A stretch of 17,981 nucleotides of DNA from a virus (IMGVR_UViG_2850784384_000005); one strand, 5' to 3'; shown: positions 2,258 to 17,981, numbered from the stretch's first letter. Translations and numbers: made by a program. Notes: generated from the letters alone by a model not told the origin.

Positions 2258-2539
2258 TTACCGCCGTAACCGCTCCGGCTTCTTCCAGTGGTACGTGATT
2301 TTCTCCTTCTCCCGATACAGTTCAACGCGGCGATTGTAGGCCAGCATTTCCAGAACGCGGATCCGTATGTCGCGCATATCCGCATCATTAAGCTGGATAC
2401 CATCACGGCGCATCACCTCAGCAACAACACGCGCATAATTTTCGGCTGTCACGCTGTCCGGCTGCGTGGTCTGTTCGTCAGCCTGCTGGCTGATTCCAGA
2501 GACGCGGCGGATTAATCGCAGTATTTCGGCTTCTGTCAT
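2258..2539 (-). CDS. Hypothetical 93-aa protein, last gene of the packaging operon immediately after terL
   Basis: ORF preceded by GAGGT 8 nt upstream of ATG, starting 13 nt after the terL stop. No family recognised. Confidence 0.5.
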   Translation of the reverse strand: MTEAEILRLIRRVSGISQQADEQTTQPDSVTAENYARVVAEVMRRDGIQLNDADMRDIRIRVLEMLAYNRRVELYREKEKITYHWKKPERLRR

Positions 2540-2552
2540 GCTGCTGACCTCA

Positions 2553-4214
2553 TTACACCCCGCTAAATTCTTCCAGTTTCTGGCGGTGGCTGTCGCTTAT
2601 ATCAAAAGCAAAATCCTCATGCTCTGCCTGGAATGTACCAAACGCCATCAGCGCCGCTACGCTCGGGTCTATCTTGTTCGGTGATTTTTTCTTGTTCGGC
2701 TTGATATTGGCGTTCGCGTCACTCTGCATCACGACGTTACTCATCGACCAGGACAACACCGGATCGCCACGATGCACAATCACCCTGCGGTTAACAAAAA
2801 CTTCGAACGATTTCGCCGCCGGACTGAATCTGAGGTAGGTTTGCGGGAACGGCTCCACCTCAAAACCAGCCCCCTGTAATTGCGTCCTGAGATGCGTGGC
2901 GTTCCACGTATCAAAGCCCACCAGCCTGATATTAAATTTCTCCGCATCCTGCATGATGTCATCTCTGATCCGGTCGTAATCAATGCAGTCACCTGGCGTT
3001 GTGCGTATCCAGCCCGCTTTAGCCCACTGGCGATAGACAGCGCGGTTTTTATTGGCGGGGTTCTGTAGCTGGAACTCCGGCAGATAATGACGGGAAATCA
3101 GCATAATGGTTTTACCGACCGGAAAGGCATAGCATACGCTGGAAATATCGCTGGTTGATGATAAGTCCAGCCCCGCGTAACACTCCTGACCGTGTAAATC
3201 TTCCTCCGTGAACGTTCCGGCACACTCAGCCCATGCACCATTACCCATCCACGGGGTAGTCCCCTGACACCAGATATTAAATCGCTTTGTCATCATCTCC
3301 ACCCACTGCGACGGAATACCCCGCGCTTTCTGGATGGTTGAGGCCAGTTTTTCACGATCCACGGAAACATCAATATTAGGGTTCGCCTTTATCCACATCG
3401 CCGGATCATCAACCTCGTTTTCGTCGTCCAGTTCGTAAATCAGTACAAAAATTGAATCGTTGACCTCTTCGCCGTCCAGGATCTGGCAGCAATAATCATA
3501 GTGCTGTTTACAGGCTGAAACGACGTTACTGCCCGATGTGGTAATGGCAAATAACAGCCCTTCGGGACGTGCGCCCATCCCCAGCTCAAGCGCGGAATAA
3601 ACGCCGTTATCGGGGTGTAGGTGGTATTCGTCCACGATGGAAAGACTGGGGTTTGTCCCCTCGATGGTTGCCGCTTTTGCTGCCAGCGGCTTTAACAGGC
3701 TGTTGCTTTTCGGGTGTATCACCTTATGCGCCTGAATATTCACCCGCCTGCGTAACGGTCGGGATAAAAGGCACATCTGACGCGCATTATCAAACACGAT
3801 CCGCGCCTGGTCACGGCTCACCGCTGCGGTGTAGATATCCTGCTGACCGTTCTCCATAATCAGAAACCAGTTAGCCAGAATCGCGGCGGTCGTGGATTTC
3901 GCATTTTTGCGCGGCACTTCGATAAAGGCGCTCGTGTATTTGCGCCGTCCGGTGGCCTTAACCTTAAAGCCGAGGATGCACGCAAAGGCGAACTGCTGCC
4001 ACGGCTCCAGCTCAATGGGTCTGCCACGCATCGGTCCTTTTACGTGCGGGCACACCCTGGAAAAGGCAATAAACCGCTCCACAACCTCACGATCGAACGT
4101 GTAAAGGGGGCTTTTAAGGTCCGAAAAGTACCGTTTAACAGCCTGTTTTAACCGTTTACAGGCCGGAATTTTGCCCGTTTTTACGTCTTCTGCGTACTTA
4201 TTCCAGGCGGTCAA
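2553..4214 (-). CDS. terL: Phage terminase large subunit
   Basis: 553 aa with Walker A-like PRKNAKST and Walker B-like LSIVDEYH in the N-terminal ATPase region, plus a C-terminal nuclease-sized domain. Sits directly downstream of TerS. Confidence 0.9.
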   Translation of the reverse strand: MTAWNKYAEDVKTGKIPACKRLKQAVKRYFSDLKSPLYTFDREVVERFIAFSRVCPHVKGPMRGRPIELEPWQQFAFACILGFKVKATGRRKYTSAFIEVPRKNAKSTTAAILANWFLIMENGQQDIYTAAVSRDQARIVFDNARQMCLLSRPLRRRVNIQAHKVIHPKSNSLLKPLAAKAATIEGTNPSLSIVDEYHLHPDNGVYSALELGMGARPEGLLFAITTSGSNVVSACKQHYDYCCQILDGEEVNDSIFVLIYELDDENEVDDPAMWIKANPNIDVSVDREKLASTIQKARGIPSQWVEMMTKRFNIWCQGTTPWMGNGAWAECAGTFTEEDLHGQECYAGLDLSSTSDISSVCYAFPVGKTIMLISRHYLPEFQLQNPANKNRAVYRQWAKAGWIRTTPGDCIDYDRIRDDIMQDAEKFNIRLVGFDTWNATHLRTQLQGAGFEVEPFPQTYLRFSPAAKSFEVFVNRRVIVHRGDPVLSWSMSNVVMQSDANANIKPNKKKSPNKIDPSVAALMAFGTFQAEHEDFAFDISDSHRQKLEEFSGV

Positions 4215-4233
4215 GCTCGTCCTCTTCTTCTGT

Positions 4234-4509
4234 TTACGGTGGATTTTTACGGCGGCTTATCGGGTCAAAACCGAGCAAGGAGGCCATTTTTATCATCACT
4301 CTTTCAGCGTCGGATTTTGCGCTTAATGCGGGGTTTCTGCTCTCGCCGCCCTGACTGTTAACAATGCTGAACCCGCGCGCCGCAAGGTCTGCAACGGCTT
4401 TCCGGTAAATGGAGTAGTTGACGCAATACAGTTCCAGATTGCTCCAGTCGGCGGGGGTCAGGTCTCCCTGTTCCGCAAGCTGCCGCGATTTTTCCCGCCA
4501 CTGCTTCAC
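4234..4509 (-). pseudogene. terS: Terminase small subunit, P27 family, N-terminus frameshifted at a C6/G6 homopolymer (4555-4560)
   Basis: The 91-aa body carries LTPADWSNLELYCVNY and GFDPISRRK, typical of P27-family TerS. The family-like N-terminus (RFQDKPDPAYLDDIAV) continues upstream in frame but reaches a stop at 4567-4569, and the only upstream ATG (4567-4569 on the minus strand) is in a different frame. Removing one G from the G6 run joins them into about 114 aa. Confidence 0.7.
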
Positions 4510-4745
4510 GGCGATATCATCCAGGTAGGCGGGGTCGGGTTTGTCCTGAAAACGCCCCCCACCCCGTCATACAGCCTCATCAGCGATTGCGGAAACATTC
4601 CATAACCTCGCGGTCACGGTCGGTTAATCGCTTCGCTGTGATGCGTTCTGCGCGTCCTGACGCTTTATCTTTATGCCCTGTTTCCTGTGTCTTCCATGCG
4701 TCACGCTGCCTTATAAGTCCACGGATAAGGCGGTTTTGTTCCCGC

Positions 4746-16629: not shown

Positions 16630-16788
16630 TATTGCCCCCTTTCGTTTCTTAAAGAGTTATTTCGTGTTCTATTGCGTTGGGATGTGTCTGATTGTGTCAG
16701 GATGATTCAGAGTTGGCAAATGTTGAGGCCGCATGGTTTACAGAAAGAGGAATAATCAGGATAAAATCCTTTAAATTCATGTTAATAC

Positions 16789-16820
16789 AAAGGCATAAAA
16801 TATTGTTTCATGCCTTTTTT
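16789..16820 (+). terminator. Orphan terminator-like hairpin on the + strand in the int-alpA intergenic region
   Basis: Stem AAAGGCAT (16789-16796) / ATGCCTTT (16810-16817) with a 13-nt AU-rich loop, then a T-run to 16820. No + strand gene lies upstream. Confidence 0.3.
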
Positions 16821-16911
16821 CTCGCTATTTAAAGAGTGATTCGCTAGTGTATAAAAAATCAGCAACACATTAAAAATCAGCTATTTATAAATCTGTACAC
16901 TTTTTCACCTC

Positions 16912-16957
16912 TTGTTCGTAGTTGTTCCGCTTTGTTGCTCATTGTTGCACGTTGTAT
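16912..16957. promoter_or_regulatory. Phased hexamer array, copy a: TTGTT(C/G) at 16912, 16922, 16932 and 16942, with a degenerate fifth at 16952
   Basis: Read directly. On the minus strand this is GGAACAACTACGAACAA, about 16/19 identical to copy b. Adjacent palindromes CGCATAtccagTATGCG and TATGCGCATA at 16962-16982. Confidence 0.5.
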
Positions 16958-17003
16958 CTGTTCGCATATCCAGTATGCGCATACTGAAAAAACACGAAAA
17001 AAA

Positions 17004-17981
17004 TTATTTTCTTCTGGCTACTGGTAGCGTGGTTACGTTTTCATGTGTTCCCGCCAGTATCCCTAACCGCTCCGTCCACATATCCAGCGCATTGCGTTTA
17101 GCATCCAGATAACGGGAATGATTATAAACTCGCTGCATTCCTGGCATCTGGTGGCCTGTAAGCTGCTCCACGACGTGAGGATCCACGCCTAAATCGTTCA
17201 GCATCGTTGTAAAGGTGCGCCGGATGTCATGTAGTGACCAGTGAGGGTGATTTAGCCTCCTGTGCGCTAATCTGCCGTACTGCGACACGCTTGTTTCCTG
17301 TTTCACTTCCCCCAGCAATAAGCCCGTGTGCCTGTTCTGCTCCACCAGCTGCGTGACGAACGGCAGTATTGCTTCCGGTATGGGCCGGAATATTGCCACC
17401 TTCGTTTTGCTGTGTTCTTTCGGCACGGTCCAGAGCATTTCGGTAAAATCCCACTCGCTGATCTCCGATAACCTCAGTTCTACCGTCCGGCATCCGAACA
17501 CAATCAGGAGGCGGATTAACGCGATGTAGTAGGGGGAGAATATTTTTTTGTCCAGTGCCTGCAATAATTCGCCCAGTTCTTTGGTGCTTAAGACACGCTC
17601 GCTTATATCCGGTTTTTTCCCAACGTCCGCCACACTCATATCATCAAGAACGTTGCTGATTGCATAGCGCCGCCTCCGGCAGAACTTAAGCGCCTGTTTG
17701 CACGTCTGTAGCAAGAATCCGGCAGTAACAGGCGTTCGCTTTGCCACCTGGTCAAAACAGGCCAGCCAGTGCCGTAGCTCGCATTTATCCAGCGGCATAG
17801 CACCAATGTGCTGTATTACGTGATTATTAAGGCGCTTTTTCAGGGCGGCATAATCCACGCGGTTTTCCTTTGCGTACGACTCAAGCCAGTAGGTGAGCGC
17901 ATCGCCAACCGTTACCGGCTTTAACGCTTCCTGTACGGTGTAATTAAGCTCATGACGTGGATTTTCCCCTCTGCCAGCCAT
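17004..17981 (-). CDS. int: Tyrosine recombinase (P4-type phage integrase); 325 aa visible, N-terminus may extend beyond the window
   Basis: C-terminal catalytic motifs HDIRRTF (HxxR) and the tyrosine in RVYNHSRYLD. The visible N-terminus has no arm-binding domain. Confidence 0.9.
   Translation of the reverse strand: MAGRGENPRHELNYTVQEALKPVTVGDALTYWLESYAKENRVDYAALKKRLNNHVIQHIGAMPLDKCELRHWLACFDQVAKRTPVTAGFLLQTCKQALKFCRRRRYAISNVLDDMSVADVGKKPDISERVLSTKELGELLQALDKKIFSPYYIALIRLLIVFGCRTVELRLSEISEWDFTEMLWTVPKEHSKTKVAIFRPIPEAILPFVTQLVEQNRHTGLLLGEVKQETSVSQYGRLAHRRLNHPHWSLHDIRRTFTTMLNDLGVDPHVVEQLTGHQMPGMQRVYNHSRYLDAKRNALDMWTERLGILAGTHENVTTLPVARRK

Follow-up and report, generated by a model that had tools for sequence, protein, structure and literature searches.

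A Shigella flexneri orthologue of the capsid-forming satellite EcCIEDL933 between phoQ and roxA, very probably a fixed and non-packaging remnant

We analysed a stretch of viral DNA of 17,981 nt (IMGVR_UViG_2850784384_000005), here called the window, in which all coordinates count from the first letter. It holds the host gene phoQ and, to the right of it, an island belonging to those phage-inducible chromosomal islands that form capsids (cf-PICIs). This island is the Shigella flexneri orthologue of EcCIEDL933, the prototype cf-PICI from Escherichia coli O157:H7 EDL933 (Alqurainy et al., 10.1101/2022.09.08.507074; He et al., 10.1101/2025.02.11.637232). The phoQ gene (1-1461, plus strand) is an intact open reading frame (ORF) of 486 aa, annotated as phoQ in the matching E. 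coli genomes and of the same length as in K-12, and its stop codon overlaps the attachment core. The island genes lie almost all on the minus strand. Two relatives are used for comparison throughout, namely E. coli RM6927, which has the same island between phoQ and roxA, and an O103:H2 strain, which has a close relative inside tqsA that aligns to the window from position 1489 onward.

Gene families were assigned by profile searches of the window's ORFs against Pfam, NCBIfam and PHROG. In the direction of transcription, and with all genes named here on the minus strand, the island starts with a P4-type tyrosine integrase gene, int (17004-17981, Pfam Phage_integrase), which is cut by the end of the window; the full-length int of relatives also has an Arm-DNA-bind_3 domain. 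Then come alpA, the PICI induction regulator (16441-16629, intact, Pfam Phage_AlpA, E 5e-18), an ORF of 248 aa, an Icd-like gene (13989-14291, matched by NCBIfam NF033153 at 63.3 bits, the cutoff being 25), small ORFs, a DUF4222 gene (12248-12547, profile match) and a primase-helicase (10503-12251), an intact ORF with D5_N, DUF5906 and Pox_D5 matches which is 90.8% identical to the "DNA primase family protein" of RM6927. An iteron replication origin follows (10258-10490), with nine copies of TRTCTACC in both orientations and an A/T-rich centre; all nine matches fall within 10263-10488, against 0.47 expected, and the origin is real and statistically solid. Four accessory ORFs of 100, 53, 101 and 92 aa (9097-10214) separate the origin from the head genes.

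The head genes are all co-directional. The first is an HK97-type major capsid gene, present as a pseudogene (7639-8796) whose Pfam Phage_capsid match is split over two ORFs. It is followed by a prohead serine protease of family S78 (7027-7599, Peptidase_S78), the portal (5814-7025, Phage_portal, E 4e-88), a head closure or completion protein (5479-5817, Phage_HCP), a gp6-like head-tail connector or adaptor (5186-5482, Phage_connect_1) and an HNH endonuclease that serves as packaging cofactor (4746-5186, Pfam HNH), all five of them intact. After a 60-aa gene, hyp60 (4580-4762, phrog_3173), there is a terS pseudogene of the P27/Terminase_4 family (about 4198-4533), recognised by Pfam Terminase_4 and by alignment with TerS of RM6927 and of the O103:H2 strain. 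An intact terL (2553-4214, Pfam TerL_ATPase and TerL_nuclease) and a conserved 93-aa gene of unknown function, hyp93 (2258-2539, phrog_1561, E 1.5e-55, 100% identical to RM6927), close the series. An earlier note on this DNA had named these genes, and at the level of homology its inventory is right, every one being present on the minus strand with family-level support. It had also called the head and packaging set full, which stands for the families; the capsid and terS genes, however, are not intact.

Searched with Pfam, NCBIfam and PHROG, the ORFs of the island gave no match to any family of tail, baseplate or lysis proteins, in agreement with what had been claimed before, and Psu and Sid families were not detected among these ORFs with the same libraries. 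The head gene order had been described as inverted, and indeed the island runs capsid-protease-portal with the terminase genes late; published work on EcCIEDL933 reports an organisation that differs from that of its helper. A tRNA scan of the window found none, therefore the element is not tRNA-targeted. Rfam at gathering thresholds gave no RNA family within the window. The consensus promoter scan (18 hits against 15.7 in shuffled sequence) and the terminator scan (29 against 20.1) were not clearly above their controls and were not used as evidence.

Regarding the boundaries, the 10-mer AAATATGTCC (1460-1469, plus strand) recurs at the int-proximal end of the intact RM6927 island, and in K-12 the empty site is uninterrupted, reads GATGAATAAATATGCCCATACTTCACG and has roxA 75 bp after phoQ. 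Therefore, the true left end of the island is the attL core at about 1460-1469, overlapping the phoQ stop, and not position 2258, where the earlier note had placed it. That note had been right that the locus differs from K-12. The roughly 790 bp from 1470 to 2257 form a non-coding left arm which is part of the island and varies between relatives. Within this arm, ACTACACC stands twice (1542-1562, plus strand) as a 21-nt exact repeat found at both island ends in RM6927, and the doubled sequence is a plausible pair of integrase arm sites because it is repeated next to attR. In the O103:H2 relative an analogous doubled repeat, TGACTACACC, is likewise found at both island ends. On the other side, in three S. 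flexneri loci whose sequence goes further than the window (L010, L012 and L017), only the remaining 88 or so int codons follow, and then roxA, pepT and potABCD; in L010 the attR core is reached some 430 bp after the window ends. Tail genes just beyond the window, which would have spoken for a prophage, are thus not there. The island measures about 14.7 kb without insertion sequence (IS) elements and about 16.9 kb with the two that it carries.

Capsid, protease, portal, HNH and terminase all belong to families of HK97-type phages, and HK97 likewise has HNH before cos and terS, so the island might be taken for the head half of an HK97-like or lambdoid prophage from which tail and lysis genes were deleted. 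However, tail, lysis and immunity modules are absent both from the window and from the flanks of the relatives. Hundreds of genomes have the same att-bounded architecture of about 15 kb, which is also found at another site, tqsA, and in every case has int at one border and terL-hyp93 at the opposite one; the backbone (AlpA, P4-type int, primase-replicase with iterons) is that of a PICI. When the capsid protein was searched against 50,697 phage records, the best matches were satellite-sized and at most 65% identical, namely vB_KppS-Ant (16.5 kb, 65%) and Pmp8 (15.3 kb, 58%), whereas full-sized phages reached about 40% at most. An origin as the head module of an ordinary lambdoid prophage, which had been named beforehand as the competing outcome, is in our opinion extremely unlikely.

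Both of these nearest records are filed as phages (LR881103.1, Escherichia phage vB_KppS-Ant; OR544139.1, Pasteurella phage Pmp8). They are of satellite size and have cf-PICI-like content, with int, primase, and head and packaging genes; each nevertheless has a single gene with a tail-related annotation, in Ant a putative "tail length tape measure protein" following terL and in Pmp8 a "tail terminator". Among solved capsid structures, the best matches after 9GYI, the EcCIEDL933 capsid model, are the Rhodobacter capsulatus gene transfer agent capsids 6TB9 and 6TBA (E about 4.5e-46), which are closer than any solved phage capsid in that list.

Several genes of the island are broken. In the capsid gene, codon 276 (7969-7971) is TGA, and it is TGG (Trp) in RM6927, the O103:H2 strain and EDL933. 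This W276stop mutation splits the gene into ORFs of 275 and 109 aa and cuts the protein at residue 275 of 385. Residues K290, D295, E319 and R345, which are needed for transfer according to published work on EcCIEDL933, all lie beyond the stop. The terS gene has been damaged twice. A 91-bp deletion between two CCCCGCC repeats, absent from RM6927 and the O103:H2 strain and visible as a scar at 4528-4534, took the start codon, the first 7 codons, the ribosome-binding site and 71 bp of the hyp60-terS spacer; furthermore, codon 107 (4234-4236) is TAA instead of GAA (E107stop), with loss of the last 12 residues. In int, a run of five A is reduced to four (17962-17965), and the resulting -1 frameshift disconnects the N-terminal arm-binding domain from the catalytic domain. 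The locus L017 has the same allele with the full gene, in which the frame ends shortly after residue 90; the loci L010, L012 and L016 have an intact int of 409 aa.

Two complete insertion sequences also lie inside the island, both on the minus strand and both overlooked in the earlier inventory. IS1 (12582-13349, 768 bp, 99.9% identical to annotated IS1) was recognised by its inverted repeats and InsA/InsB Pfam matches and is flanked by a 9-bp target duplication, CTTTATATC (12573-12581 and 13350-13358); a 77-aa gene located directly upstream of DUF4222 and the primase has lost its final codons to this insertion. IS4 (14845-16270, 1,426 bp, 99.8% identical to annotated IS4, Pfam Nterm_IS4 and DDE_Tnp_1) has a 13-bp duplication, CTCCATTTCGGGG (14832-14844 and 16271-16283), and splits the conserved 248-aa ORF directly downstream of alpA. 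We rejected a 109-aa plus-strand ORF spanning the IS4 site as the disrupted gene, since the minus-strand ORF of 248 aa is conserved in EDL933 with 67% identity. Both insertions presumably have polar effects. A further lesion is seen in the 53-aa accessory ORF (9463-9624), where residues 1-25 of SSB are joined to a C-terminal PerC segment (about residues 54-87); this chimera marks a deletion of the SSB and PerC genes carried by intact relatives. In the S. flexneri loci L004-L008 a further IS1 copy lies shortly past icd, on the phoP side and some 7 kb away from the island (about 20900-21660 of the locus), which fits the heavy IS1 load of this chromosome region.

The 91-bp deletion may have affected more than terS. 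The physical ends of the HK97 genome are located 49 nt upstream of terS, in the interval from HNH to terS, and the island has the same arrangement of HNH, then hyp60, spacer, terS and terL. The linear record of vB_KppS-Ant, a particle-derived cf-PICI, starts 22 nt before terS and ends exactly after GGGGTGGGGGNNGTTTTCAGGAC, a motif conserved in EDL933 and kept in the window at 4543-4565 (minus strand, GGGGTGGGGGGCGTTTTCAGGAC) as a candidate left flank of cos. We predict by analogy that the cos ends lie within the hyp60-terS spacer, close to the junction of GACCCCGCC with GGGCACC. The deletion starts 13 nt past the end-point of the motif, and it is likely, on the same analogy, to have damaged cos or its terminase-binding flank besides terS expression. 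The HK97 ends bear out only the overall order of HNH, cos and terS, since their comparison with the island spacer gave no convincing match beyond a G-run and a GACCxCCGCC-like stretch. The Pmp8 record, tried as a second test of packaged ends, was uninformative, as it is opened arbitrarily inside the integrase region.

Despite these lesions the descent of the island is clear. The EDL933 locus has the same gene set between roxA and phoQ, and EcCIEDL933 is described in published work as an element of 15.4 kb with int, alpA, rep, capsid, protease, portal, connectors, HNH, TerS and TerL and with no tail genes. Between the window and EDL933, the packaging proteins are overall 94-100% identical: TerL 98.7% over the full length, TerS 98.2%, hyp60 100%, HNH 99.3%, adaptor 96.9%, head closure 96.4%, portal 98.0%, protease 97.9%, capsid 97.9% and hyp93 93.5%. 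Outside the packaging genes, AlpA is 98.4%, Int 99.7% (over the part inside the window) and the Icd-like protein 95% identical. If codon 276 is repaired, the capsid protein matches PDB 9GYI along its full 385 residues with about 98% identity; the authors of 9GYI state it to be the EcCIEDL933 capsid model, and its sequence equals the product of the EDL933 capsid gene. In the nine packaging genes we counted 128 synonymous and 41 non-synonymous codon differences from EDL933, thus most of the divergence built up under purifying selection.

The earlier assignment to the cf-PICIs is therefore sound, given the shared phoQ-roxA site and these identities, and the remaining traits of the family are present as well. 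An integrase gene, albeit frameshifted, lies at one end of an att-bounded island of about 14.7 kb minus IS elements; there are an AlpA-type regulator and a primase-replicase with an adjacent origin; the island has its own capsid (only as a nonsense pseudogene), prohead protease and portal, Phage_connect_1 and Phage_HCP connectors 96-97% identical to those of EcCIEDL933, and HNH, TerS (a pseudogene) and TerL. Tail and holin genes are lacking, int is followed directly by roxA in the relatives, and the orthologue is an experimentally characterised member. Three core genes are not intact ORFs, namely capsid (W276stop), terS (start loss and E107stop) and int (-1 frameshift), and this bears on the function of the copy, not on its descent.

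The window is almost identical to S. flexneri chromosomes, differing from LR213452.1 (S. flexneri AUSMDU00008355) by 1 base in 14.2 kb; CP058589.1 is S. flexneri M2901. No complete E. coli genome covers at least 80% of the window. We rejected unusual content as the explanation of this low coverage, because the S. flexneri origin, the two IS elements and the mosaic replication and accessory region account for it. The capsid gene of the island is found in 361 of 5,426 complete E. coli genomes. In the collection as a whole, 8,909 blocks contain the exact TerL protein, and the C-terminal product of the split capsid gene is called in 1,585.

The lesions are unevenly spread among the S. flexneri loci. 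The capsid stop and the 91-bp terS deletion were present in all six loci checked (L004-L009). On the other hand, IS1, IS4, E107stop and the int frameshift are confined to a sublineage. L004, L005, L007 and L008 have clean junctions without either IS and no E107stop; L010 and L012, where the terS and capsid lesions were outside the check, also have neither IS. L006 shares IS1 and E107stop with the window, its sequence stopping short of the IS4 site, and L009 shares E107stop, its sequence ending before the IS1 site and short of the IS4 site. L017 has IS1 and the int frameshift and no IS4, and L007 has a 341-bp deletion. Therefore, the decay was stepwise, and the lesions fit the IS-driven genome decay typical of Shigella.

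In order to see what the lesions would mean, it is useful to consider how an intact element works according to published work on EcCIEDL933. There, a helper phage turns alpA on; Int then excises the island of roughly 15 kb, which the primase-helicase replicates starting at the iteron origin. A small T=4 head is made from the capsid protein, protease and portal of the element itself, HNH, TerS and TerL cut the DNA of the island at a cos site of its own and package it, and the adaptor and head-closure proteins dock the tail of the helper phage. As for mutants of EcCIEDL933, the published work shows that mutation of any packaging gene but one abolishes transfer completely, the exception, hypothetical gene "1792", still leaves transfer severely impaired, and mutation of alpA abolishes induction. 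These results argue strongly for a loss of function in the window copy, which has seven lesions, namely the capsid nonsense mutation, the loss of the terS start and most of the spacer, the second nonsense mutation in terS, the int frameshift, IS1, IS4 and the SSB-PerC deletion. With capsid, terS and int reduced to pseudogenes and the island interrupted by two IS elements, this copy is very probably unable to build heads, to package or to excise. Thus, judging from its sequence, we read the island, with a probability of about 0.9, as the S. flexneri orthologue of EcCIEDL933 at the identical site and very probably a fixed, non-excising and non-packaging remnant.

The earlier note had implied a working element that builds its own heads, that is, a functional and mobilisable cf-PICI still spreading on helper tails. 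All 11 core gene families are indeed there in canonical order, and of the packaging and connector ORFs eight keep their full length and share 94-100% identity with the functional prototype. Nevertheless, the capsid protein ends after 275 of its 385 residues, short of those demonstrated to be essential, the start and the last 12 residues of terS are missing, int is frameshifted, single mutations in these genes of EcCIEDL933 abolish transfer, and the two IS elements raise the length to about 16.9 kb. We consider it very unlikely that this copy still moves.

Some points weigh against a dead remnant. TerL, portal, protease, HNH, both connectors, alpA and primase remain full-length ORFs, which could mean either recent decay or some retained function. 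UGA at a Trp codon can be misread by tRNA-Trp at low frequency, and such misreading may yield traces of full-length capsid protein. Moreover, loss of function has here been deduced from the DNA, and the position proposed for cos is drawn from HK97 synteny and the ends of one database record. The decayed island might accordingly not be inert, with rare particles arising through UGA read-through and with int and terS supplied in trans by another PICI, or with proteins kept for interference with HK97-type phages; we hold this for improbable. If it were true, it would explain the many open ORFs in a lineage with a long-immobile element, and the 275-residue capsid fragment, portal, TerL and HNH would be the candidates for interference.

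A related proposal is that an immobile remnant has been exapted for the benefit of the host, for example to interfere with HK97-type phages, the candidates being the intact TerL, HNH and portal, the truncated capsid protein and the accessory ORFs at 9097-10214. Many ORFs are still intact, 6 of 6 S. flexneri loci checked have both the capsid stop and the terS deletion, 1,585 blocks contain the split capsid product, and satellites often carry defence cargo (PMC10085698 and published work on EcCIEDL933). However, no accessory ORF matches a Pfam or NCBIfam family, the PADLOC defence library not having been searched. The lesions also keep accruing in sublineages (IS1, IS4, E107stop, the int frameshift and the 341-bp deletion of L007), which resembles neutral decay, and EcCIEDL933 does not reduce helper phage titres according to published work. 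Exaptation is therefore an unlikely reading of the island, and a non-packaging remnant remains the one that we prefer.

Some repeats and indels deserve mention apart from this. In the left arm, GTCAC is repeated four times at an exact 10-bp spacing (1974-2008); the array lies inside the stretch aligned with RM6927 (window 1-2052) and outside the stretches aligned with EDL933 and the O103:H2 strain. A 171-bp segment (2053-2223), absent from RM6927 and bracketed by near-identical GCGCAWTTTTGCGCT hairpin sequences, is either an insertion in the window or a deletion in RM6927. Decamers of GAACAA type in 10-bp phase stand at 1580-1594 in the attL arm, at 9012-9036 just upstream of the capsid gene and at 16912-16956 in the gap between alpA and int. 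AACAACGTGGAACAA, with up to 3 mismatches, has 8 matches in the window against 0.71 expected, one of them (1054-1068, three mismatches) inside phoQ, and a similar array adjoins attR in RM6927. These arrays are candidate binding sites for AlpA, which is Xis-like, or for another regulator of the island. Finally, perfect 23-bp direct repeats (9056-9078 and 9419-9441), each a terminator-like hairpin, flank the 100-aa accessory ORF. Precisely the stretch enclosed by them is missing from the S. flexneri locus L007, pointing to a cassette loss mediated by the repeats.

The element family, the prototype at the same site, the mechanism and the capsid structure are already published, and the only addition made here is that the S. 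flexneri copy is multiply disabled. Its stepwise lesions are a small and clean example of satellite decay in a host-restricted pathogen and could serve as lineage markers. The value of the case is modest for annotation and epidemiology and little for discovery. For annotation, satellite finders that count homologues will score the island as a complete "type A" cfPICI although it is very probably dead. In the cfPICI model of SatelliteFinder (PMC10085698), all 11 core components are detectable here, and none of the tail and holin components that the model forbids is present; the difference is that int, capsid and terS are pseudogenes. The family is common, with elements of this class reported for 13% of the genomes of Enterobacteriaceae (de Sousa et al., NAR 2023, PMC10085698).

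Compared with the classical PICIs of Gram-negative bacteria (EcCICFT073, EcCIED1a), the half with int, alpA and replication genes is common to both families, as are some attB sites, according to published work on EcCIEDL933. At phoQ, 600 of 5,426 E. coli genomes have an attL junction similar to that of the island, exceeding the 361 with the island's capsid gene. However, classical PICIs lack a capsid, portal, connectors and TerL of their own and remodel helper capsids or redirect the helper terminase, whereas portal, connectors and TerL are present in this island. Modules are also exchanged on the backbone: a tqsA-site island (GCA_049591855.1, locus 13439-15328) has an identical AlpA, an int of 409 aa at the same position and a different head module with a fused Clp-protease/capsid protein of 629 aa, which shows module swapping on the same PICI backbone. 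With P4-like satellites, which have psu, delta, sid and an alpha-type primase and use the capsid and cos of helper P2, only int, alpA and the Icd-like gene show a resemblance, and the island has its own HK97-type head module instead.

HK97 itself shares the head and packaging protein families and the arrangement HNH, cos, terS and terL, and its record has terS-terL at one end and HNH at the far end. The head genes of HK97 run portal-protease-capsid, whereas those of the island run capsid-protease-portal. Sequence identity between the two is low, and the island differs by its lack of tail, lysis and immunity genes, its genome of about 15 kb and its T=4 capsid. The capsid of EcCIEDL933 has the HK97 fold, as published.

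The closest counterpart is thus EcCIEDL933. It has the same attB, phoQ-roxA, in the same orientation, and the same order of int, alpA, a variable ORF, the Icd-like gene, DUF4222, replicase, origin, accessory genes and packaging genes, the latter running capsid, protease, portal, closure, adaptor, HNH, hyp60, terS, terL and hyp93. The two differ in the replication module, which is mosaic: EcCIEDL933 has a DUF927 replicase and the window a D5-type primase-helicase, with 53% identity over the N-terminal 228 residues only. The non-coding left arms are also unlike, and the window copy has SSB-PerC deleted and carries W276stop in the capsid, the terS deletion, E107stop, the int frameshift, IS1 and IS4.

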